A DNA stretch of 64,000 nucleotides, taken from NCBI GenBank assembly GCA_041671325.1, contig JBAZBR010000005.1:14184-78183 (forward strand), given 5' to 3'. The DNA is from Patescibacteria group bacterium (lineage in GTDB: Bacteria > Patescibacteriota > Patescibacteriia > PEXW01). Shown here piece by piece: positions 36,681-60,869 of this stretch (positions are counted from its first letter, which is position 1; every line of letters begins with the position of its first letter). Under the pieces are notes generated by a model. The model saw only the letters and a program-made list of their open reading frames with translations, did no database searches and was not told the origin of the DNA. A program made the translations under genes and the position numbers.

Positions 36681-37730
36681 TTAGGTCTTGGATACTTTTA
36701 GGGTCCAGCTAGTTAAACCTGTTGTAGTGATATAAATGGTATGCAAGCCGTCAGTCACGTCGCCTTTCAGGGTTTTTGACAATATGGCTTCATACTCTTG
36801 GTAAACCCGATCGCCCACAACCACATCCGTATTTTCAACTTTAAATTTAGCCTTGCCTTTTAGGATGCCAAGTTCAAAAGTATATGAACCGCTTTTCGGG
36901 AAATCTACAATAACTTGGTTTTCATAAGTTATTGCCGCATCTTCAACCCCGCCCTCACCCCGGCCGTCAATGGAAAATGGCGGCGTAGGCGCCGGAAAAA
37001 CCGTCAAAGTCCCGTTCATGTTTGAGGTGGTGGCAAAATGCGCGCCTTTGGTAAAGTCTTTGCCGACTTGCCAAACCTTGCCTTTGTTATAATTGCCTTT
37101 TAAAATTGTATACTTTCCGTCCAAATTAAATGTTGGGCCATTGTTGTTTTCTCCGCCGGCAAAATCCATGACTAAATTCACGTTTGGTAAAGCTTTTATT
37201 GATTCCAGTCTTAAGGTTACCGTCCCCTCATCTTTTCTTACCCGGATTGGAAAACTCTGGACAGCCTTCATGGGTGTGGAACGGACAATCGGGGCCGGTA
37301 CGCCAGGCGTATTAACTGGCTTAAGCTGGCTGATGACTTTCGGGTCTTCAGCTGGAATTTTTGTGGGATCATAGCCAACCCTGACTTCATCCCCGTCCGT
37401 AAAACCATCCCCGTCCGTATCCGCATTCAGGGGATCAGTTTTGTATAACCTTTCTTCATTATTAGTCAGTCCGTCATTATCAGAATCAACATTGCCATTG
37501 GTGTTTAAATTGGAATTATCATTTAGGCTCTGATTGCTATTATCATTGGCATTCAGATTTTCATTGGCATTAGCGTTGGCATTCCCGTTAACATTAGGAA
37601 TTTCAGCATTAACATTCTCATTGGCATTAGTATTAGCATTGGCTGGTGGCGGGGTGGTTTTTTTGCCGCAAGCCGAAAGACCGACTGCCAAAGCTATGAT
37701 TAGAAAGCTAAAAAATATGGTCTTATTCAT
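36681..37730 (-). CDS. Lipoprotein with Asn/Ala-rich repeats and thrombospondin-type-3-like Ca-binding motifs
   Basis: Lipobox LSACG, NANANENLNAN repeats, DSDNDGLTNNEE and DTDGDGFTDGDE (DxDxDGxxDxxE). Start taken at MNKTIFF. Confidence 0.5.
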   Translation of the reverse strand: MNKTIFFSFLIIALAVGLSACGKKTTPPPANANTNANENVNAEIPNVNGNANANANENLNANDNSNQSLNDNSNLNTNGNVDSDNDGLTNNEERLYKTDPLNADTDGDGFTDGDEVRVGYDPTKIPAEDPKVISQLKPVNTPGVPAPIVRSTPMKAVQSFPIRVRKDEGTVTLRLESIKALPNVNLVMDFAGGENNNGPTFNLDGKYTILKGNYNKGKVWQVGKDFTKGAHFATTSNMNGTLTVFPAPTPPFSIDGRGEGGVEDAAITYENQVIVDFPKSGSYTFELGILKGKAKFKVENTDVVVGDRVYQEYEAILSKTLKGDVTDGLHTIYITTTGLTSWTLKVSKT

Positions 37731-37887
37731 ACCTATAAAATACCACTTTCCAATTGGCTTGGGCAATGGCTATTGCACCCTCACATCCTCTAGTCCCTAT
37801 AACCCCTTTTTGCACACATTGACAAAAAATATGAACTTGATATTATTAGACGAAAATCGTTCCTCAGACTGAAAAAAGGAGTTTTGT

Positions 37888-38259: not shown

Positions 38260-39417
38260 CTAAGATGTTTTTAATGCCTTAACCCTATCCAGTCTTTCCC
38301 AAGGGAATTCCACGTCTGTTCGGCCAAAATGGCCATAAGCCGCGGTCTTTTCGTAAATTGGTTGCTTCAAGTGTAATTGTTCGATAATTTCCGCTGGTTT
38401 GACTGGGAAATGTTTTTCAACGATTTTTTCGATTTCTTCATCTGACTTCGTACCAGTGCCATAAGTATCAACCATAATTGAAACCGGTTGAGCTACGCCG
38501 ATGGAATAGGCTAATTGGATTAAACACTTCTTAGCTAATCCGGCCGCAACCACATTCTTGGCAATATACCGGGCGGCATAGGCCGCACTGCGGTCAACTT
38601 TGGTAATACACTTTCCGGAAAAACAGCCACCGCCGTGCGGCGCTGAACCGCCATAAGTGTCGACGATAATTTTTCGGCCAGTCAAGCCTGTATCAGCTGG
38701 CGGCCCACCCAGCACAAACTTGCCTGTGGAATTAATGAAAGTCTGGGTCTCCGGCGTATACCAGGAGCCTAACACCGGTTTAATGACTTTTTCCATAATA
38801 TCTTTTCGTAAAGTCGTCATAGCCACGGTATCGGCATGGTGTGCGGCAATAACCACAGTCACAGCCCGAGTTGGTTTGCCGTCTATATATTCAATGCTTA
38901 TTTGGGATTTACCATCTGGCCGCAAGTATGGCAAAGTTCCATTTTTTCGAACTTCGGCCAGTTGCTTAGCTAGCTTATGAGCGAGCGAAATGGGTAACGG
39001 CATTAGTTCCGGAGTTTCATCGCTGGCATAACCGAACATCAAGCCCTGGTCACCCGCGCCTTGCTCCTTGAATTCACCTGCACCTTCATCAACCCCTTGG
39101 GCAATATCAGGTGATTGTTCATGCAAAGTACTAATCACGCCAATGTCTTTGGAACAAAACCCAAAATCCGGGCTGTCATAACCAATCCGGTGAAGCGTCC
39201 GCCTGACCACTTGCTGGATATCCACATAAGCCTTGGTGCGGGCTTCCCCACCAACCATAACTAAACCCGTGGTGGCAAAGCATTCAATACCTGCGTGCGT
39301 TTCCGGGTCTTGTTTGAGCATTTCATCATAAATCGCATCTGAAATTTGGTCACAGACTTTGTCCGGGTGACCTTCAGTTACGGATTCGGAAGTGAAAATA
39401 TGAGTTCGGCTTGGCAT
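38260..39417 (-). CDS. metK: S-adenosylmethionine synthetase
   Basis: [12 protein letters not shown] and GGGAFSGKD-type motifs. Start taken at [11 protein letters not shown] (39417). The track ORF extends upstream through the riboswitch. Confidence 0.9.
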
Positions 39418-39439
39418 ATGATAATCGGTTAAAATTAAT

Positions 39440-39618
39440 AATTTTAAAAAAGTCCTCACTAAATGAAGACGGTATGTTTTGCATCTTCCCTTAGCGGGTC
39501 TCGATTTGGCACCTTTCACTTAACTAATTAAGTGGCGGTTGTCGGCTGGATTCCGCCGCCGCCAAGGCTTTGGCGGACAGGCATCGGGCGAGTTCCCTAC
39601 CCAGCACTCTTGATACGT
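39440..39618 (-). promoter_or_regulatory. SAM-I (S-box) riboswitch in the metK leader
   Basis: Minus-strand reading gives TATCAAGAG..GG..GGGAAC.CGCCCGATG ... GGTGCCAAATC, matching the S-box consensus (ATCAAGAG, CCCGATG, GGTGCTAAATCC) as recalled. A terminator hairpin GTCTTCA..TGAGGAC plus T6 precedes the metK ATG. Confidence 0.75.
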
Positions 39619-39760
39619 TATTTAATTGTATGGATATAATAAACGAAAAGAATCAATTTGGCAAACGAATTTAAATTTGACACGCCAAGTTTAAAAAGAT
39701 AGGATAATCCAACAAAAAAGCTCTTGAAAAATTCACTTAATAATGAGAAAGGAAATTACC

Positions 39761-48261: not shown

Positions 48262-49026
48262 TTAATGAGCTGGACTAAACCGATATCTAATTCCAAGTAA
48301 GGTCCGCGCTGCAGCAAGATTTGCATCTTTATCAATAAGCCTTTCTGGTGATTTATCAGAACCCCAAAGATGTAATAGCGCTTCATTCACATCGTATTGT
48401 CGTTGAGCTAAGAACTGTTCAATGCCTGCAATCACTCCATCCTGATCCCCGTCGTATTCCAAAGCGTAGGCGAGTCCCCAAACGCAGAGTGCATTGATTA
48501 ATAAGTTCGTTAACTCGCGCAAATGCTTGTGAGCCTGACCATTTTTGTACTCAGGACTAGAACCATGTTTCCATTCTTCATGGAGCGGCAAGAGGTATGC
48601 AGCCACGAAGCGCGGGTAAGGCGCCTCTTGGAGCGAATTATGGGTCTGGCCCAAGAACTGCAGGATCTTCTTATGCGCTTTAAAATATCCGAGGTAAAAA
48701 GCCAATCCAGGCGGCATGAGTTTCTTCAGCCAATGCTTCACAATTAGCTGCTGACATAAAGTCGAAATCTTCGGGTTAACGTGTCCCGCGAAGAGAAGAT
48801 AGAAATCAACGCGTTTTTCTATCTCGCTATCTCTCTCCAAAATAGGGACGGTATAATCGAATGGGGGAATGATTGTACCGCTATGCAGCAATCCGATCGC
48901 CTCCTCTTCGGTATCAATGGCATTCCACCGCTTTTTAAACTCATCCCAAGTTTCAATCCTTGTAAAAGTACGGTCTAAATCGCGTTTTGTGTCGTCACGT
49001 AACATGCTCTCTCCTTTTCTGGCCAC
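48262..49026 (-). CDS. Hypothetical protein (254 aa)
   Basis: No recognisable motif. Followed by a hairpin plus T-tract at ~48181-48215 on the minus strand. Confidence 0.5.
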   Translation of the reverse strand: MARKGESMLRDDTKRDLDRTFTRIETWDEFKKRWNAIDTEEEAIGLLHSGTIIPPFDYTVPILERDSEIEKRVDFYLLFAGHVNPKISTLCQQLIVKHWLKKLMPPGLAFYLGYFKAHKKILQFLGQTHNSLQEAPYPRFVAAYLLPLHEEWKHGSSPEYKNGQAHKHLRELTNLLINALCVWGLAYALEYDGDQDGVIAGIEQFLAQRQYDVNEALLHLWGSDKSPERLIDKDANLAAARTLLGIRYRFSPAH

Positions 49027-49140
49027 CCTTTTCTGGGTAGCTTTTGAGTTTCTATGAAAACGTGAGCCATAAAGACTTTAAAACACTCCATTACTGGCGT
49101 CAAGTTTAACAATTTTAAATAATGCACGCGGCGGAACTGT

Positions 49141-49380
49141 CGCGTGGAGAAAGTGAAGCTACTCTTATTTCCATTCTTTGGAGGTCCCCAGAAATTTGGC
49201 ACGGACTGAGCAGAGCGAAGGAGTACGAATTTCTGGGGTAAAGCGAGGCTTCTCGGTTGACCCCACAAGGCAGGAACGCAGCGTAGCGAGCACGGGCTTG
49301 TGGGGAAAGCGGCACGTTTGTGGAACCCGAAGTAGCCTCGCGAATGCGGGGATACGAAGGGTGAAACAAACGATGACGCG
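49141..49380. repeat. GC-rich structured repeat (R1) in the 3' trailer of tRNA-Asn
   Basis: Contains GGTCCCCAGAAAT (49183-49195), its inverted partner AATTTCTGGGG, and the core TGGGGTAAAGCGAGGCTTC (49234-49252). The same core occurs at 55475-55493 and 58303-58321. Confidence 0.55.
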
Positions 49381-49719
49381 TGGCTCCGCGAGTCGGACTC
49401 GGACCGACAACCTACCGGTTACATTTATCCTTATGTTTCCATAAAGCATGGACTATATCTTTACCCGTCTTCGTTGCTTCGCAACTTCGTCGGGCAGGCC
49501 CGACTAAAATTACAAAGATTCAAAGGTGGGGGTACTCCGGTATCTAGTCTCTACGGTGCCCCTGTACCGATTAATGATACAAGGTTCCCACGGTATTAGC
49601 TTATCCAAATTATTCTTGGATTTAGCTTTCACCGTTATCCCGGAATGTTCATCCCAACGTTACCGTCGGGAGCTGCGTCAAATCCACAGCCGGTTGCTCT
49701 ACCATTGAGCTATCGCGGA
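49381..49719 (-). tRNA. tRNA-Asn (anticodon GUU) interrupted by a group I intron; exons 49686-49719 and 49381-49421
   Basis: Joined exons give a 75-nt cloverleaf with acceptor TCCGCGA/TCGCGGA, D-arm GCTCAATGGTAGAGC, anticodon stem ACCGG/CCGGT, loop CUGU|UAA, T-arm GTCGG-TCCGAGT-CCGAC, and CCA encoded. Confidence 0.75.
49422..49685 (-). ncRNA. Group I self-splicing intron (IC3-like) in the tRNA-Asn anticodon loop
   Basis: 264 nt. The 5' exon ends in U. The internal guide GCAGC at intron nt 10-14 pairs with exon GCUGU, giving a U-G wobble at the splice site. The intron ends in G. The core GUAGAGACUAGAUACCGGAGUACCCCCACCU resembles the P7/P3 core of the Azoarcus and Anabaena tRNA introns (GUAGAGACUAGACGGCACCCACCU), as recalled. 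Confidence 0.7.
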
Positions 49720-49750
49720 ACAATAATATTAATTATTTTGTATGGAAATA

Positions 49751-50062
49751 TTACTTACTTTTGCTTTTTTTGGCAAGTTTACTGTGTATTTCTCTATGGC
49801 AATTTGCGCAAACTAACTGGCATTTATCTAATTCGTTTTTGACCTTTTGCCAACTCCGAGTATAACCTTTTTCGGATATACCAAACTTTTTTTCATGAAT
49901 ATGGTGAAACTCTAAAGCTTCTTGGCATTTAGCATACCCACATATTTCGCATTTCGAACCTTTTAACTCCCTTGCTAGGTTTCTTACTTTGATCCTTCGT
50001 TTCTTGACTGCTTCAATCAAGTACTTTCTTCGATCAATGTAGTTGCGCTTTTCTTTCGGCAT
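49751..50062 (-). CDS. HNH endonuclease (103 aa)
   Basis: CEICGY...LEFHHI...CANCHREIH, the Cys4 zinc and HNH catalytic motif. Its stop lies 31 nt upstream of the intron-containing tRNA on the same strand. Confidence 0.75.
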   Translation of the reverse strand: MPKEKRNYIDRRKYLIEAVKKRRIKVRNLARELKGSKCEICGYAKCQEALEFHHIHEKKFGISEKGYTRSWQKVKNELDKCQLVCANCHREIHSKLAKKSKSK

Positions 50063-54793: not shown

Positions 54794-55378
54794 TTATTCC
54801 AGTTTTTCAGCAACTTTACCAACTAAGTCCAAACCAGGCTTCAAGGTTTTATTACCTTCTTCCCAACTGGCTGGGCAAGCCAGGCCTGGATTTTGCCGGA
54901 CATAGTCCAAAGCTTTGAGCTTGCGGAGGATTTCCCCGGCCGAGCGACCAATATTTTCCGCGACAATTTCCACAGCCTGTAAAATCCCTTCCGGGTCAAT
55001 GATGTAAGCCGCCCGATCAGCCTGACCACTGATTTCATTAAAAATACCTAGCTCTCGCGTTAACTTGCCAGTATGGTCAGCAGCTAAAGGATAAGAAATG
55101 TCGGCTAGCAATTTTTCCTCATTCATCCAAGCTTTGTGAGTAAAAACCGTATCCGTGCTAACGGACATGATCTCGGTGTTATATTTTTGGAATTCAGCAT
55201 AATGTTTGCCCATATCCTTCAATTCTGTAGGACAGACAAAAGTGAAATCCGCGGGATAGAAAAAGATGATCAGCCATTTACCTTTGAAGGCATCCAAAGA
55301 GACTGACTTTTCCTTGTCCTCTTTGGGATAATAAGCTGGCAAAGTGAAATCTGGAAACATTTGGTTGATTTTTGGCAT
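54794..55378 (-). CDS. Peroxiredoxin (AhpC/TSA family)
   Basis: FTFVCPTE peroxidatic Cys motif. Confidence 0.85.
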   Translation of the reverse strand: MPKINQMFPDFTLPAYYPKEDKEKSVSLDAFKGKWLIIFFYPADFTFVCPTELKDMGKHYAEFQKYNTEIMSVSTDTVFTHKAWMNEEKLLADISYPLAADHTGKLTRELGIFNEISGQADRAAYIIDPEGILQAVEIVAENIGRSAGEILRKLKALDYVRQNPGLACPASWEEGNKTLKPGLDLVGKVAEKLE

Positions 55379-55480
55379 AAAATTGATGGGTTAGTTTTGA
55401 ATTGGTTCTATTGATGAATACCATTTATTAATAGAGATTATTTCAGAGGGCATCAAATTTTCTTTTGGAAAATTTGGGGA

Positions 55481-55768
55481 AAGCGAGGCTTCGTGCGAAG
55501 GACGTAGCGAAGTTGCGCATGCGACTACGCGAAGCTCTGAGCGCGAAACGAGCTGGCGGAAGGGGCGACCCGCCTACGTTTAACTTCTGCGGGCAGGGAT
55601 TCGTCCATAAATTTGTTAATTATTTCATACCTCACGAATGAGGAGCGGACGAACGGAGTGAGGAGCACGCATTCGTGAGGAAATGCGAGGCTTCGTGCGA
55701 AGGGCGTAGCGGAGTTGCGGATGCGACTACGCGAAGCTCTGAGCGCGAAACGAGCTGGCGGAAGGGGA
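55481..55768. repeat. Tandem 85-bp direct repeat (2 copies, 4 mismatches, 118-bp spacer); each copy ends with the 12-nt 3' terminus of tRNA-Ser
   Basis: Copy a is 55481-55565 and copy b is 55684-55768, both read directly. Each ends ...GAGCTGGCGGAAGGGG, which is the reverse complement of the tRNA-Ser 3' end CCCCTTCCGCCA. Copy b is contiguous with the genuine tRNA. Confidence 0.75.
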
Positions 55769-55845
55769 GAGATTCGAACTCTCGAAAGGCTTTCACCTTT
55801 ACTTGCTTTCCAAGCAAGCGCACTCGACCACTATGCGACCCTTCC
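55756..55845 (-). tRNA. tRNA-Ser (anticodon GGA), class II with long variable arm
   Basis: GGAAGGG acceptor, anticodon stem-loop CTTGC-TTGGAAA-GCAAG, variable arm TAAAGGTGAAAGCCTTT, T-loop GTTCGAATC, CCA encoded. Confidence 0.85.
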
Positions 55846-55952
55846 TAATTTAAAACGGAAACTAAAAATACCATAACCTGTTTGGTTTAAAAAGGAAAGG
55901 GCTTTGTAGTTTAATCCTTACTATCAATAGATTTACTATTGTTTGCTAGTTT

Positions 55953-56549
55953 TTACTGTCTAATTCTTTTTAATTCTATCAATCTTCCCTGCCCTGTCGG
56001 ATGAAGCTTCATTGCTCTAATTAACTTATCAAGTTTAAATTCTCTCCACTTAGCTTGATTGGGAAGCGGATCTATTAACCTGATCGTATTTTTTATTGGA
56101 TATATTCTATCTATTACGCAGGCATGGCCATTATTGTTTTTGGTGCCATTTAAAACGTCACTATTAAGAAGAACTAAAAGATTTGCATCCTTCTTAATCC
56201 TACTAGAAATAAAAGTAATCAATTCCTTTTTAGTTTTAAAATTTACAATTGGATAATTTGTAGCTTTTAAAGGGATCCTTAATTTTTTAAAAACCGCATT
56301 CGCATCATATTGCTTTTTATTCATTTGAGTTCCGTAGCCAGCCCCGGGTCTTTTACCTGTTCTTACGTTCCAAAATAAATTCTTGTCTTTTTTATTCAAA
56401 ATCAGCCCCAAGTGGTAACCCAATAACTCTATAGGAATTAGGGGTATACCCAATTTATACATAACAATACTTATACTTGTTGGTACGCAACAAGAGTACT
56501 GCTGAGTAAATGGAATATATCTGGTGTCCTTAGGTATGATACTTTTCAC
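55953..56549 (-). CDS. Hypothetical protein, possible papain-like (C39-like) cysteine peptidase fold
   Basis: QQYSCCVPTSISIVMYKLGIP (Gln...Cys) followed by NGHACVIDRIY (His) is reminiscent of a C39-type catalytic arrangement. AT-rich gene. Confidence 0.3.
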   Translation of the reverse strand: MKSIIPKDTRYIPFTQQYSCCVPTSISIVMYKLGIPLIPIELLGYHLGLILNKKDKNLFWNVRTGKRPGAGYGTQMNKKQYDANAVFKKLRIPLKATNYPIVNFKTKKELITFISSRIKKDANLLVLLNSDVLNGTKNNNGHACVIDRIYPIKNTIRLIDPLPNQAKWREFKLDKLIRAMKLHPTGQGRLIELKRIRQ

Positions 56550-56658
56550 AACTCTATTTTAGCAGTATTTAAGACTACAAAGAAACATAATATATCAAAC
56601 CCGTGCAACTTAATTTTCTTATAAAAAACAAACCCCGTCCAGAATTAACTGCACGGGG

Positions 56659-56916
56659 TCATAAAAGAAAACCCGAAACTTGGATGTCTTTGAGCACTTC
56701 TTGTCCTAAGCGCTCCATGAATTCTTCGGGCGTAGAATTTACCATCAAACCAGACAAAACCCCGATCTTCCTGGCGAATTCCACTCGGGTAACATGGTCG
56801 CATCTAAGACTGCAATCAAAAAGCGCGTCCAGGACCGCTTTAGAAACCTCATCCGGATTCCCCCAAGCGGCTTTGACCTTCTCGGCAATCTGGCCGATTT
56901 GCTTATCATCCAGCAT
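56659..56916 (-). CDS. Small acidic hypothetical protein (~86 aa)
   Basis: Start moved to MLDDKQ because the upstream part of the track ORF is encoded by the repeated leader. Weak similarity to its neighbour (F.R.IG...G). Confidence 0.35.
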   Translation of the reverse strand: MLDDKQIGQIAEKVKAAWGNPDEVSKAVLDALFDCSLRCDHVTRVEFARKIGVLSGLMVNSTPEEFMERLGQEVLKDIQVSGFLL

Positions 56917-56972
56917 CAAGACCTTCTTTGTTTGGTTTTGGGATATATTAAGGACAATTTGATTTCGCCTAA

Positions 56973-57355
56973 CCTTAACAAATGCCTTAGACCTCGTCAA
57001 GAAAAAAACCGCCCTTATTCAGAGCGGCTATCTTCACGGAGCTGGGCAATGGTACGAATCCCCTTTGCGGAGAGTACGCCTTGGATAAACCCGAGCCAGC
57101 GAAAGGCTTTTTCCAGCTTACCCTGCGTTACTTGTTCACGCATCCGGTCAAGCATCCAATTAAGGTGTACGAGGAATTCCTCGTCGGTTTGTGGATGCAC
57201 TTCATAACTCGCAAGCTCTTTCGTTGGATAATCCGAGAGGAGGGTTTTGTACAGCTCAATGATTTTAAGGAGCTTATCCTTTGTCACAATTTTCTCCTTT
57301 TTTGATTTTGACTTACCTTAACAAAACCTCTTAGCCTAGTCAAGAAAAAACCGCC
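56973..57355. repeat. ~40-bp imperfect direct repeats (56973-57013 and 57316-57355) bracketing gene 57015..57287
   Basis: CCTTAACAAA..CTTAGMCYMGTCAAGAAAAAA(A)CCGCC occurs twice. Each copy runs into a hairpin plus T-tract. Confidence 0.6.
57015..57287 (-). CDS. Small acidic helical hypothetical protein (90 aa)
   Basis: A defined ORF with a terminator overlapping its stop. Bracketed by the direct repeats. Confidence 0.4.
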   Translation of the reverse strand: MTKDKLLKIIELYKTLLSDYPTKELASYEVHPQTDEEFLVHLNWMLDRMREQVTQGKLEKAFRWLGFIQGVLSAKGIRTIAQLREDSRSE

Positions 57356-57500
57356 TACCGAGGTAGACGATTTTTGTATTTGGAATTATTTTTTGGCATT
57401 TCTCGTTTAAAGATAGCATCAAACCTCCCTTGACTTTTATTAAGGATTAATTTAGGTTCAAGTCAGATCTTTTTAAACCAAAAACAGAAAGGAGCTTTAC

Positions 57501-58124
57501 GTGTATCAGGCACTGTTTTTTGAAATTAAAAACGATGTTGAGGTCATGGCCAAGCTTGTTGAAGCTGTGCCTGACAATTGGTCATGGGTTGACGGCTGCC
57601 TCTATGCTCCCCAACACCTTATTGATTCGGGTATGGTCCAGCAGGATACTGGCTTCACCTTAGCGCGTTTCCACAGCATTAACCCGACGATTGTCGGCGC
57701 CTATGAGGAACATAACGGCAAGAGAAAAAAGCCCAATCTCTTTGCCATGATGGTGGAGCAAAAGTTGCCTGGTTTTATCTCCTACGATGAAGCTGGGTTT
57801 GAAGACAATCCCATCACTCTCAAACTCACCAAGACCATTACGATTGGGTTCTTACGCAAAGGTTACCGTGGCGACCTTTGCTTCTACTGCGGCTACTACG
57901 ATAACAGCAAGTATGACAACCCAGCGCGCTGCAGTCTAATTTTTGAACCCTGGAACGGGCCTCCGATTATGGGCAAAGAAGCCGGACCGCAACCAGCGCG
58001 TATACAGTTGGAATGGAACAGCCGCTACCCCGGAACAGAAGAAAACATCGTCCCGATCGCAGCTGTATGCCGATCTCTCAATCTCAAAGAGTATACGCCT
58101 GTCGCTGCTGCACCCGTGCGATGA
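57501..58124 (+). CDS. Hypothetical protein (207 aa)
   Basis: Local GC looks higher than the surrounding genes. AAGGAG RBS. No motif recognised (CFYCGYY, four Cys). Confidence 0.5.
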   Translation: MYQALFFEIKNDVEVMAKLVEAVPDNWSWVDGCLYAPQHLIDSGMVQQDTGFTLARFHSINPTIVGAYEEHNGKRKKPNLFAMMVEQKLPGFISYDEAGFEDNPITLKLTKTITIGFLRKGYRGDLCFYCGYYDNSKYDNPARCSLIFEPWNGPPIMGKEAGPQPARIQLEWNSRYPGTEENIVPIAAVCRSLNLKEYTPVAAAPVR

Positions 58125-58254
58125 AATTACTGCTGCAATCTGTCCTTTATATACATTGCAAAACCGTCAAGCTTTTGGCCTGGCGGTTCTTTTTAACTTT
58201 GGAAATTTACTTCCGTTTTGCTTTCTTCTCCGCCTGACCAGCTCATTTCGCCCG

Positions 58255-58390
58255 TCGAGTTCCGTGGGTGCCGCATTTGCGTCTCCCACTCCACCCTTTG
58301 GGCGAAGCCTCGCTTTCCCCACGAACGCGTGCTCGTCCCGCAGGCGCGGGACTGTGCGCCACGTTCGCGGGGTCCCCAGAAATCTTGATT
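58255..58390. repeat. GC-rich structured repeat (R3) between the hypothetical gene and ppsA
   Basis: CGAAGCCTCGCTTTCCCCA (58303-58321) and GGTCCCCAGAAAT (58371-58383). Bracketed by GCTTTC..CGCCTGACCA direct repeats (58218-58252 and 58391-58425); the second lies inside the ppsA 3' end. Confidence 0.55.
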
Positions 58391-60869
58391 ATCGCCTTGC
58401 TTTCCGTTCTGCCTGACCAATAGCAATAGTCGTCTTGATGACCGTATCTGGATTTAAGGAAATGCTATCAATCCCCTCCTGGGCTAAGAACTGGGCAAAG
58501 TCTGGAAAGTCTGACGGGGCTTGGCCGCAAATGCCAATCTTCCTTTTGTATTGCTTGGCTCCTCGGATGACATTTCGAATAAAGGTTTTAACTGCTGCGT
58601 TCCTTTCGTCATAGACATGCGCTACCAAGGCTGAATCCCTATCCACGCCCAAGATCAATTGGGTCAAGTCATTAGAACCAATGGAAAAACCGTCAAAGAC
58701 TTTGGAAAATTCCTTGACCAAAATCACATTGGCCGGAATTTCACACATCACGTAAACTTCCAAGCCGTCCTTGTGCTGGACTAAGCCATACTTTTTCATG
58801 GTGGCCACAACCAACTGGCCTTCTTTAACTGTCCGGCAGAACGGTACCATGACTTTCAAATTTTTCAAACCCATAACATCCCGCACTTTCCGCAAAGCCA
58901 AACATTCCAACTTAAAAGCTGGCTCGTATTTTGGGTCATAATACCGGGAAGCGCCGCGCCAACCAATCATAGGATTATCTTCAATTGGTTCGAACTCTTT
59001 ACCGCCAATTAAATTCGCATATTCATTGGTCTTGAAATCTGACAAGCGGACAATGACATCTTTGGGATAAAACGCCGCCACAATCCTGGCCACACCTTCA
59101 GCCAAGCGATCCACGAAAAATTGCGCTTTGTTGCTGTATTGGGAAGTAACGGCCTGAATTTGGGCTTTGACTTTAGGATCTTTGAGCTTGTTGAAATTCA
59201 ACAAAGCCATGGGGTGGATTTTTATATAGTCGTTGATGACAAATTCTTCCCGAGCCAAACCCACACCGTCATTCGGAATGAAAGAATCGGTAAAAGCTGA
59301 TTCAGGGTTACCGACATTCATCATGACTTTGGTCTTGGGCCGCTTCAGGGATTTTAAGTTGGTTTTTTTGACAGCAAACGGCAACTTGCCAGCATAGACA
59401 AAACCTTTATCACCTTCAGCGCAAGACACGGTAACTAGCCCAGCTTTTTTCAAATCCTCAGTGCCAGTACCTGTACCGACGATGCAAGGTACGCCTAATT
59501 CCCGGGAAATGATGGCCGCATGGCAAGTCCGGCCGCCGGCATTAGTCACAATAGCCGAAGCTTTTTTCATGATCGGTTCCCAATCCGGGTCAGTCATTTC
59601 CGTAACTAATATTTCCCCGGCTTTAAATTTACCAATATCTTTCACGTCTTCAATCACGTGAACTAATCCAGTGCCAATCTTCGAACCGATCGAACCACCT
59701 TGGGTTAAAACCTTACCTCGTTTTTGTAAAACATAAGCTTCTAAAATGTTCGGATTGCGTTGGCTGGTCACAGTCTCGGGCCGAGCTTGGACAATGAAAA
59801 GTTGGTTGGTTTCCCCGTCCTTGGCCCATTCCATATCCATTGGTTTGAAGTGTCCGGCTTTTTTGGAATAATGCTCTTCAATAATGACTGCCCATTTCGC
59901 AAGTTTTAAAATTTCTTCATCCTTAATGGCGAATTTCTGCCGGTCAGGCAAAGAAACACGAATATTTTTGACTGGTTTGGTAGTGCCATAGGAATAAACC
60001 ATCTTAATTTCCTTGCTGCCGACTTGCTTGCCGATGATAGGTTTATAGCCTTGGGCTAGGGTTGGTTTATGCACATAATATTCATCCGGGGTAACCGCGC
60101 CTTGGACAATATTTTCACCCAAACCATAGGAAGCGTTAATCATGACTGCATCCTTAAAACCAGATTCCGTATCAATGGAAAACATCACGCCCGAAGCGGC
60201 TAAATCCGACCTGACCATTTTTTGTACAGCGATGGACAAAGAAACTTTAAAATGATCGAACTTTTTGGCCGCCCGATAAGAAATCGCACGGTTGGTGAAG
60301 AGCGAAGCAAAACATGATTTGCAAGATTCAATCAAAGCGTGGCTGCCGGAAACATTCAAATAGGTTTCTTGCTGGCCAGCAAAAGAAGCATCTGGCAAAT
60401 CTTCTGCCGTGGCGCTGGAACGGACTGCGGTGTCAACATTCCTGATTTGGTAATTTTTGGAAAGTTTTTGATAGGCTTCCAAAATTTCTTTTTTCAATTC
60501 TGGAGGGAATTCCGCATGCAGAATAGTTTCCCTGACCCGGCGGCCGCGCTCATATAAGTTCGTCAGATTGTTGACGTTCAGATCTTTTAAAATATCCTTG
60601 ATTTCATTTTTAATTCCCGAATATTTTAAAAGATATTGGTAGGTATAGGCGGTTATGGCAAAACCATTAGGGATCTTGACGCCCTTTTTGGTAAGCTCCC
60701 GATACATTTCTCCCAAAGAAGCGGTTTTACCGCCGACTAAAGGCACGTCTTTGATAGTGATTTCATCAAACCACAAAATAAAGCGCTTACGCTTTTCGGC
60801 CTGGCTGGGCATGGGTTTTGGCATATGGTGTTTGTTTAATTTAGAATTATTGTAAATTAACTCTAACAC
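58389..60869 (-). CDS. ppsA: Phosphoenolpyruvate synthase (PEP-utilizing enzyme family)
   Basis: N-terminal ATP-grasp PEP/pyruvate-binding region (VPLVGGKTASLGEM), the mobile His domain (GGRTCHAAIISRELGVPCIVG), and a C-terminal TIM barrel. Confidence 0.8.
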   Translation of the reverse strand: MLELIYNNSKLNKHHMPKPMPSQAEKRKRFILWFDEITIKDVPLVGGKTASLGEMYRELTKKGVKIPNGFAITAYTYQYLLKYSGIKNEIKDILKDLNVNNLTNLYERGRRVRETILHAEFPPELKKEILEAYQKLSKNYQIRNVDTAVRSSATAEDLPDASFAGQQETYLNVSGSHALIESCKSCFASLFTNRAISYRAAKKFDHFKVSLSIAVQKMVRSDLAASGVMFSIDTESGFKDAVMINASYGLGENIVQGAVTPDEYYVHKPTLAQGYKPIIGKQVGSKEIKMVYSYGTTKPVKNIRVSLPDRQKFAIKDEEILKLAKWAVIIEEHYSKKAGHFKPMDMEWAKDGETNQLFIVQARPETVTSQRNPNILEAYVLQKRGKVLTQGGSIGSKIGTGLVHVIEDVKDIGKFKAGEILVTEMTDPDWEPIMKKASAIVTNAGGRTCHAAIISRELGVPCIVGTGTGTEDLKKAGLVTVSCAEGDKGFVYAGKLPFAVKKTNLKSLKRPKTKVMMNVGNPESAFTDSFIPNDGVGLAREEFVINDYIKIHPMALLNFNKLKDPKVKAQIQAVTSQYSNKAQFFVDRLAEGVARIVAAFYPKDVIVRLSDFKTNEYANLIGGKEFEPIEDNPMIGWRGASRYYDPKYEPAFKLECLALRKVRDVMGLKNLKVMVPFCRTVKEGQLVVATMKKYGLVQHKDGLEVYVMCEIPANVILVKEFSKVFDGFSIGSNDLTQLILGVDRDSALVAHVYDERNAAVKTFIRNVIRGAKQYKRKIGICGQAPSDFPDFAQFLAQEGIDSISLNPDTVIKTTIAIGQAERKARR

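Follow-up and report, generated by a model that had tools for sequence, protein, structure and literature searches.

We analyzed a 64,000-nt stretch of a Patescibacteria genome (assembly GCA_041671325.1, contig JBAZBR010000005.1, positions 14,184 to 78,183 of the forward strand; hereafter, the window) and found that the region at 49141-49380 on the minus strand is the 3' trailer of an intron-split tRNA-Asn(GUU) gene, and that this trailer carries a structured repeat of about 130 nt, which we call element E. We are highly confident that the copies of E form a real, conserved, multi-copy and strand-specific structured family that is fused to the CCA ends of tRNAs in Patescibacteria. The view that E is an apparently undescribed structured element is well supported: literature searches gave no description of it, and no Rfam 15 family was found over the E copies when the whole window was searched at gathering thresholds, which returned only tRNAs and a group I intron. 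A permissive Rfam search (E-values up to 10; 49000-49800 and 55350-58500) gave only noise over the E copies.

Fold and distribution of element E

Element E is non-coding and has two domains, D1 and D2. D1 consists of GC, GUUUCG-NNN, a variable hairpin, N'N'N'-CGAAGC, CUC and GC, and is followed by a UUUN linker. D2 is an 11-bp stem (CCCCA-N6 paired with N6'-UGGGG) with a bulged CCA that is conserved, a helix of 4 bp and a tip that varies, and the 3' tail of the element is ACCC. In true copies the similarity starts at the base after CCA with GCTCGTTTCG and ends about 125-155 nt further on at GGGGACCC. D2 modules are sometimes duplicated, as at 49182-49249 in the window and in the loci L006, L017 and L033.

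A first-pass annotation, made from the sequence alone, had described a family of GC-rich structured repeats 3' of tRNA genes on the basis of three short shared motifs. This description holds for E, the copies of which have a G+C content of 53-68% against 37-49% for the window (in 1-kb steps) and a covarying fold. Motif 1 does occur three times (49234-49252, 55475-55493 and 58303-58321) and motif 2 twice (49183-49195 and 58371-58383), with about zero occurrences of either expected by chance in dinucleotide-preserving shuffles. Motif 1 is the junction of D1 and D2, and motif 2 (GGTCCCCAGAAAT) is the stem of one D2 variant; it is found once on each strand of the element, since the stem of the second hairpin is palindromic (CCCCAGAAAT / ATTTCTGGGG).

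The RNAalifold consensus calculated on a MAFFT alignment of 19 copies contains 37 pairs, 23 of which show compensatory changes. A covariance model built from this consensus (R1) has five matches in the window, where the first-pass annotation had counted three motif sites. In a 56-sequence alignment, paired cells reached 94.7%, whereas shuffling left 75% and sliding the partners 36-51%; compensatory changes were found at 32 of the 37 pairs, and none of 500 shuffles reached the observed values. Given that this larger alignment was fitted to R1, it matters that the 19-copy MAFFT/RNAalifold run is independent. The strand signal consists of two near-invariant U.G pairs and of 126 G.U cells against 51 A.C cells, which indicate that the tRNA-sense strand of E is the one predicted to fold. 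A chance similarity of unrelated GC-rich hairpins, an idea favored only by the fact that the segments are generally GC-rich and palindromic, is refuted by the zero expected matches, the E-values of 1e-24 or better and the strong covariation, and is almost certainly wrong.

Further copies do exist outside the window. An exact-pattern scan of species-representative genomes yielded 38 loci, about 17 of which showed long flanking similarity; all of these latter loci come from Patescibacteria metagenome-assembled genomes or from evidently mislabelled relatives (for example, CAZAMC010000002.1, which is labelled Gammaproteobacteria). The ppsA gene of one relative, P0013, is 83% identical to that of the window. 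R1 found 26 matches in genome loci and 56 in metagenome loci (47 loci). We tabulated 83 copies of E, five of which are the same DNA in two collections, so that about 78 are non-redundant. All 83 lie on Patescibacteria contigs, and the best model matches have E-values of 1e-24 or better. CCA stands directly before E in at least 72 of the 83 copies; the pattern used for the metagenomes begins at GCTCG, so CCA was not required there. An intact tRNA 3' end is abutted by 47 of the 83, with 26 anticodons and 14 amino acids represented, and a few copies occur at non-tRNA sites ending in CCA, such as the 3' end of ppsA.

In tRNA arrays the order is tRNA-E-(12-13 nt)-tRNA. In other words, E serves as the spacer there, and it must therefore be transcribed and excised. 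We rejected the idea that E is an intrinsic terminator, given that ACCC follows it and that the next tRNA in arrays begins 12-13 nt further on; no terminator-like site (a GC hairpin with a U-tract) was found in either of the trailers checked. CCA is encoded by all 97 tRNAs in the examined loci, which are genome pieces of 2-15 kb that had been selected for holding E, and E follows 43 of them. Thus, in loci selected for it, E stands behind nearly half of the tRNA genes, in phase with the CCA end. Since all 97 tRNAs encode CCA and only 43 have E, E is not needed for tRNA maturation generally. The presence of CCA in all of these tRNAs, with or without E, also led us to reject an RNA-mediated origin in which CCA is brought in by E; an encoded CCA gives no hint of such an origin.

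The tRNA-Asn(GUU) gene behind which E lies in the region at 49141-49380 is missed by ARAGORN when unspliced because a group I intron lies inside it. Rfam matched the group I intron family RF00028 at 49429-49744 on the minus strand with 52.3 bits, the gathering score being 50 (search of the whole window), and when the 264 nt between 49685 and 49422 were removed, ARAGORN accepted the spliced product as tRNA-Asn(gtt) with an intron at 35/36. The region at 49141-49380 therefore belongs, as do the other sites of the first-pass annotation, to the trailer of a tRNA, here tRNA-Asn. Group I introns of this tRNA-Asn class have been reported in Patescibacteria, where standard tools overlook such genes and where some of the introns contain HNH genes (PMC13011429). 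The R1 match of the tRNA-Asn copy spans 49257-49379 on the minus strand (60.2 bits, E-value 5.7e-12), and a single-sequence fold gives D1 and D2 again (z=-4.7). The extra D2 module that follows includes motif 1 and motif 2, and its GAAGCCTCGCTTT leader extends to 49252. The small hairpin at 49125-49146 is at most a candidate terminator, having no U-tract; a promoter-like site of the next gene lies just past it (49103-49075), and another lies upstream of tRNA-Asn. Just upstream of the tRNA-Asn gene, outside its intron, we also observed an open reading frame (ORF; 49751-50062, minus strand, 103 amino acids) that matches the HNH endonuclease domain PF01844 with 21.7 bits against a cut-off of 21.4. 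This free-standing HNH copy could drive recombination at the tRNA-Asn locus.

Table 1. Coordinates of element E copies, host genes and associated features in the window
Feature	Position	Strand	Evidence and remarks
tRNA-Leu(CAA) trailer	12436-12504	-	Remnant, T-arm to CCA, of a different tRNA-Leu(CAA) allele; not E
tRNA-Met trailer	13243-13362	-	Structured module with motif 3, small hairpin and pseudo 3' end CCCCAGGTACCA; not E
Small hairpin CACGCG...CGCGTG	49125-49146	-	Closes tRNA-Asn trailer; sequence and fold; without U-tract
Extra D2 hairpin module (GCTTTACCCCAGAAATT...AAATTTCTGGGGACC)	49182-49249	-	R1 45 bits, E-value 1.4e-8; aligns to D2 part of model
Element E, diverged copy (D1 + D2)	49257-49380	-	Begins directly after tRNA-Asn CCA
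tRNA-Asn(GUU) host gene	49381-49719	-	Exons 49719-49686 and 49421-49381; 264-nt group I intron, position 35/36
Element E, second tandem copy	55448-55553	-	R1 67.6 bits
Spacer, small hairpin CCCGC...GCGGG and tRNA-Ser 3' end duplicate	55554-55625	-	Sequence, direct repeat
Element E, complete copy	55626-55755	-	R1 109.1 bits; abuts CCA of tRNA-Ser(GGA)
tRNA-Ser(GGA)	55756-55845	-	ARAGORN
Direct repeat 1, displaced ppsA tail GQAEKKAKRK* (reverse strand)	58210-58240	+	Continuous with terminator region
Element E, complete copy	58241-58376	+	R1 113.6 bits; fold z=-4.1; antisense to ppsA, just past its stop codon
Direct repeat 2, ppsA tail in use GQAERKARR* (reverse strand)	58389-58419	+	Translation

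Probable exchange between loci and duplicated tRNA ends

The interiors of D1 are 96-100% identical behind different tRNAs on different contigs, with near-identical pairs at Val-UAC and Asn-GUU, at Lys-CUU and Ala-UGC, and at Pro-UGG and Arg-UCG. In relatives, the tRNA-Met and tRNA-Leu cluster occurs as Met-(1 nt)-Leu-E, as Met-E-Leu-E and as Met-E-Leu, and the window has other trailers there. Thus, the presence or absence of E differs between relatives, both in this cluster and at the ppsA site, a kind of polymorphism that the first-pass annotation had envisaged. Based on these comparisons, we consider it likely that E is mobile, or at least that it has been exchanged between loci and between genomes.

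The ppsA site was also compared between relatives. As the first-pass annotation had noticed, the E copy here is bracketed by direct repeats, one of which is the 3' end of ppsA; it gave their length as about 22 bp, and we find repeats of 31 nt that are imperfect (22 of 31 positions match). The copy is preceded by CCA at 58238-58240. The displaced peptide GQAEKKAKRK is the functional ppsA tail of the relatives P0006, P0008 and P0015, and the flank downstream of direct repeat 1 resembles that of the uninserted relative L044. The tail now in use, GQAERKARR, is also found in P0009, and ERKTRR in P0017, both of which are loci with an insert at the ppsA site. The site is empty in L044/L045, L094 and L095, where the terminator directly follows the stop codon. 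In L042 (8437-8580) and L043 (2733-2850), a different GC-rich hairpin pair, which is not E, occupies the site, and again a new ERKARR or ERKTRR tail is accompanied by a displaced tail of the EKKAR type. One of these hairpins (TGAACCACTCACTT.GTTCGGGTTCA) is also found directly after the CCA of a tRNA-Gly in L049.

A ppsA tree placed the window together with P0002 and P0003, relatives in which the site is empty, and apart from P0009 and P0017. The tree suggested an independent insertion with a replacement tail; we withdrew this interpretation because the last ~200 nt of the gene were imported from another clade. In a sliding-window comparison, most of the window ppsA is closest to L094 and L095, and the last ~200 nt (58389-58600, minus strand) are closest to the L042/L043/L044 clade (80-86% versus 56-79%). 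Given that ppsA is mosaic, the gene end and the insert therefore entered together by homologous recombination. The ppsA locus thus shows horizontal spread and insertion polymorphism. An exact-protein lookup found no record of the ppsA ORF from its GTG start.

At tRNA-Ser(GGA), the first-pass annotation had reported a tandem duplication of the tRNA 3' end and its trailer. The duplication is present, with a unit of 92 nt instead of the 85 that it had given (55477-55568 and 55679-55770; 93% identity, 202 nt apart). The two tandem E copies are 94% identical in D1, and D2 of the second copy has been swapped for a short AT-rich hairpin. The duplicate of the tRNA-Ser 3' end, CCCCTTCCGCCA, lies at 55565-55554 on the minus strand (z=5.2). 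Public assemblies of the same organism break close by: a Logan contig (L003, with its start at 55548) ends within the tandem E copies, and a 618-kb ENA contig starts at 54650. The break at 55548 is consistent with repeats disrupting the assembly.

Such duplicates recur throughout the family. About a quarter of the tabulated copies (about 25 of 83) are associated with a second occurrence of the target's last 12-31 nt. About 20 copies are located 48-200 nt past a tRNA, each preceded by a duplicate of the last ~20 nt of that tRNA, and eight copies that abut their target have a duplicate downstream, the target being a tRNA 3' end or, at ppsA and in L016, a gene end. The tRNA-end duplicates run from T-loop position 56-58 to CCA, and the perfect ones are 18-22 nt long and enclose 120-265 nt. 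We also looked for kilobase-scale islands between E and distant tRNA-end duplicates, and rejected them: no clear duplicate is more than 265 nt away from the original, and 48-265 nt of material lies between. Thus, the first-pass annotation was right that duplicated tRNA 3' termini are a feature of these loci, and the view that the repeats are simply attL/attR scars of integrase-borne islands is not supported.

Several families of modules of 50-180 nt, which we call X/Y modules, lie between a tRNA and its ~20-nt duplicate in L085, L074, L087, L089, L051, L064, L049, L054, L059 and L036. They are structured, often start with a terminator-like hairpin, and hold the local T-loop and T-stem in antisense, a copy that is specific to the tRNA and reaches 15 nt in L074. 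Each carries one of a few conserved GC-rich cores, which are GCGACCCATCGGGAGCA, GGGCAG...CTGCCCAGGAC and CCGATGCGCC...GGCGCCGG, and a small GGCCCC-loop-GGGGC hairpin stands just before the duplicate. E is found inside such a unit (tRNA-E-Y-duplicate) in L051 and L064, and after the unit in L087 and L089. The modules and duplicates appear to resemble the features of recombination within the T-loop-to-CCA segment, and the sense and antisense T-loop copies could rebuild the target as a hairpin. Longer stretches of 1.9-2.6 kb between a tRNA and a degenerate 3' end duplicate, followed by E, were observed in L034 (4666-7226) and L047 (10435-12319). They contain foreign-looking genes, including in L034 a 425-amino-acid protein with a DGQHR-like motif, and no integrase-sized ORF was apparent in their ORF lists, which were inspected without a Pfam scan. 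These two stretches may be small islands integrated at tRNA genes, and are weak candidates.

Possible origin and spread of element E

Our preferred reading, which we hold with moderate confidence, is that E is a selfish, non-autonomous mobile element that is co-transcribed with tRNAs and spreads via T-loop-to-CCA recombination. E would be transcribed together with its tRNA and cut off between the CCA and the first G of the element. Its functional unit would be a folded single strand, most likely RNA, and it would spread between tRNA 3' ends by recombination using the T-loop-to-CCA segment, the joining being carried out by a trans-acting recombinase or guided by microhomology. Homologous recombination between strains would also carry E along.

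Several points weigh against this reading. The near-identity of loci could result from gene conversion instead of movement, and E is kept behind Arg-UCG, Pro-UGG, Ser-GGA and Asn in diverged genomes, which also fits a host function. Most tRNA-abutting copies have no target duplicate, so one mechanism may not explain all insertions, and the lengths of the duplicates vary (0, 12, 15, 20-22 and 31 nt). At ppsA the copy arrived in a recombination tract and therefore gives no proof of transposition. The ORFs beside the window copies yielded no recombinase, transposase or reverse-transcriptase domain from Pfam. ORFs near copies outside the window were clustered rather than annotated: an all-vs-all clustering of 429 ORFs around copies found no recurrent family except syntenic housekeeping neighbors. 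Nor were any E copies found in viral contigs, phage records or plasmid records; a single match in the viral collection was dismissed as a chance match.

The main rival is that E is a host-beneficial tRNA-maturation device that releases CCA-ended tRNA, working either as a self-cleaving ribozyme at the CCA-G junction or as a handle for RNase P, RNase Z or another nuclease, with its multi-copy state arising from duplication together with the tRNA genes. We regard this as possible, although doubtful. It would account for the exact CCA junction at 47 tRNAs, for E between co-transcribed array tRNAs, where excision is required, for a fold that is specific to the sense strand, and for the invariant unpaired nucleotides and constant helix geometry (the 11-bp D2 stem with its bulged CCA). 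In addition, the D2 stem, bulged CCA and ACCC tail resemble a minihelix with an NCCA-like end, and theta ribozymes, which trim phage tRNA trailers, offer a precedent (PMC10879173). However, only 43 of the 97 tRNAs in the E-selected loci have E while all 97 encode CCA, E is also found at non-tRNA sites, its presence differs between close relatives, and it matches no known ribozyme family. An HDV (hepatitis delta virus)-type P1 helix cannot be drawn from G1: by inspection, the 19-sequence alignment has no conserved complement to GCUCGUU, the candidate P1 partners (CGAGU, AGAGC, ACAGU and others) show no covariation, and there was no Rfam HDV match, so that an HDV-like fold was rejected. A broader idea, which we put forward tentatively and consider unlikely, is that E represents a novel RNA class by which the 3' ends of tRNAs are defined, either as a ribozyme cutting exactly between CCA and G or a minihelix-like nuclease substrate, or as a mobile RNA or single-strand element that recognizes the tRNA terminus itself and places copies of itself behind any tRNA.

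The T-loop-to-CCA region is a classical crossover location of tRNA-targeting integrases. The first-pass annotation had taken the duplicated ends as attL/attR scars of site-specific integration or excision. In this reading, larger elements would have been integrated and excised by integrases, and E would be no more than a conserved arm of the attachment site; in our judgment this is improbable. Duplicates that extend from the T-loop to CCA agree with it, as do the tRNA-Leu trailer that keeps the 3' end of another allele (described below), the replaced ppsA end with its displaced tail, and the 1.9-2.6 kb of foreign-looking genes in L034 and L047. Partial tRNA repeats are also known in tycheposon arrays (10.1101/2020.12.28.424599). 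Against this stand the missing recombinase domain beside the window copies and the lack of a recurrent family near the others, the short distance of 120-265 nt enclosed by perfect duplicates without integrase or cargo genes, and the 26 anticodons, for which many integrases of different specificity would have to share a single arm. A second repeat is missing at most E copies, and covarying hairpins with conserved G.U pairs are not expected of attachment-site arms. Thus, the idea explains the duplicated tRNA ends, not E itself.

Still less probable, in our view, is a derivative of a single-strand-DNA transposon (REP/REPIN-like or of the IS200/IS605 type) that is mobilized in trans by a Y1 (HUH) transposase and inserts 3' of CCA on the exposed single-stranded DNA of highly transcribed tRNA genes. 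E is small, GC-rich, extragenic and multi-copy, it lies 3' of a short fixed motif (CCA, in at least 72 of 83 copies) mostly without duplication, it lacks terminal inverted repeats, the hairpins near its two ends differ, and its strand specificity is strict, all of which would fit such a transposon. However, a 3-nt target cannot account for the strong preference for tRNAs, some copies have duplicates of 12-31 nt, the two hairpins of E are dissimilar, unlike the ends of IS200/IS605, the sequence examined (2-15-kb pieces) showed no Y1 transposase, and the conserved G.U positions fit RNA better. [quoted passage not shown] E is small, non-coding, multi-copy (83 copies) and insertion-polymorphic as these are, but it has no terminal inverted repeats, its consensus 5' end GCUCGUUUCG and 3' end UGGGGACCC not being complementary, and no fixed target duplication; it does not fit a classical MITE.

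We also compared E with known systems. REP/BIME/REPIN, Correia, RUP and RPE repeats are short, GC-rich and structured, have no ORF of their own and are mobilized in trans. They are like E in being non-coding, multi-copy and extragenic, and in being often transcribed in the 3' regions of genes; E differs in having long invariant blocks and a two-domain covarying fold without terminal inverted repeats or a GTAG head, and none of these repeats is known to keep a fixed register with the CCA end of tRNAs. The integron attC site and the attP(+) hairpin of the CTX phage are folded single-strand recombination sites. Like E, they are partly conserved in structure, have extrahelical or bulged bases and show strict strand specificity, and the X/Y modules recall them further, as their antisense T-loop would pair with the duplicated sense copy and rebuild the target as a hairpin stem. 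Unlike these sites, E has long invariant blocks and conserved G.U pairs. The Mauriceville and Varkud retroplasmids of fungal mitochondria form a tRNA-CCA junction by template switching of a reverse transcriptase onto the mature tRNA 3' end. The precise junction of tRNA-CCA with the 5' end of the element is shared with E, whereas no reverse-transcriptase domain was found in the ORFs beside the window copies of E, and CCA is not diagnostic because all 97 tRNA genes in the examined loci encode it.

The 3' external transcribed spacer (3'ETS) of Escherichia coli leuZ is a single-copy, short and unstructured tRNA-trailer RNA that acts by base pairing. By analogy, E may also be an RNA from the trailer of a tRNA precursor that acts on its own, although it is multi-copy, highly structured and variable in position. 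The attL/attR repeats of tRNA-targeting integrative elements, reportedly described by Williams in 2002, share with E loci direct repeats that start in the T-loop, tandem arrays and replaced gene 3' ends (ppsA and tRNA-Leu); the inserts at E loci differ in being 50-265 nt long without integrase or cargo, in mostly missing the second repeat, and in involving 26 anticodons. Tycheposon arrays likewise contain partial tRNAs (10.1101/2020.12.28.424599). HDV-like theta ribozymes are found next to phage tRNAs, where they trim the tRNA trailers (PMC10879173). They are small structured RNAs that are co-transcribed immediately downstream of tRNA genes, as E is predicted to be, and share with it a 5' boundary coinciding with the tRNA 3' end region. 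E differs from them in being about twice as long, two-domained and chromosomal, with no viral copies found and no match to a ribozyme model.

A large part of bacterial diversity belongs to the Patescibacteria, whose genomes are tiny and are considered poor in repetitive or mobile DNA. As a processing device, E would reveal that tRNA 3' ends mature by a so far unknown route in organisms whose RNase repertoire is reduced. As a mobile element, it would have a new targeting logic, the tRNA terminus, and would help to explain assembly breaks, replacement of tRNA alleles and mosaic genes. A mobile version that recognizes the tRNA terminus would be the first repeat family in bacteria with the CCA end as its target, and the neighboring hairpin modules that rebuild the T-loop target would then serve as a folded recombination site. 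The R1 covariance model can improve the annotation of Patescibacteria genomes, alongside the tRNA genes overlooked by standard tools.

Motif 3 and the tRNA-Leu and tRNA-Met trailers

Motif 3 of the first-pass annotation does occur three times as placed, with about zero occurrences expected by chance. Its assignment to the same family as motifs 1 and 2 failed, however, because the tRNA-Leu and tRNA-Met trailers lack an R1 match: R1 gave no match on the former and no convincing match on the latter. As the first-pass annotation had noted, the last letters of the tRNA-Leu trailer are GCGGCACCA, compared with CCGGCACCA at the genuine tRNA end. It had read this as a scar of integration, which we do not uphold, given that the last 19 nt of the trailer match the tRNA-Leu(CAA) of L053 at 19 of 19 positions and the adjacent gene at only 12 of 19; the trailer end is that of the other tRNA-Leu(CAA) allele. 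A 29-nt GC-rich hairpin, motif 3, lies in the T-loop of this remnant. In the case of tRNA-Met, a partial alignment to L080 is suggestive only, and would derive the trailer from a different tRNA-Met allele, of which the part from the anticodon loop on would remain; a 62-nt motif-3 hairpin may lie at about position 35/36 of the supposed remnant. This suggests that whole tRNA genes were replaced at tRNA-Leu and tRNA-Met, and that 3' fragments were left behind.

The third motif-3 site (39567-39581) is in the expanded stem of a SAM-I riboswitch (39478-39619, minus strand) upstream of the ORF at 38260-39519. The low score of this riboswitch, 17 bits where 44.4 is the gathering score, is due to an insertion of ~53 nt where the model has 18 nt, and an arrangement similar to that of the window was observed in L007. 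Thus, motif 3 is a separate small hairpin in the loops of structured RNAs or their remnants. Finally, short tandem repeats whose periods are 12 and 18 nt (with units like GGCATT) were observed at 37519-37640, inside the minus-strand ORF at 36681-37766, which probably encodes a repeat-containing protein.

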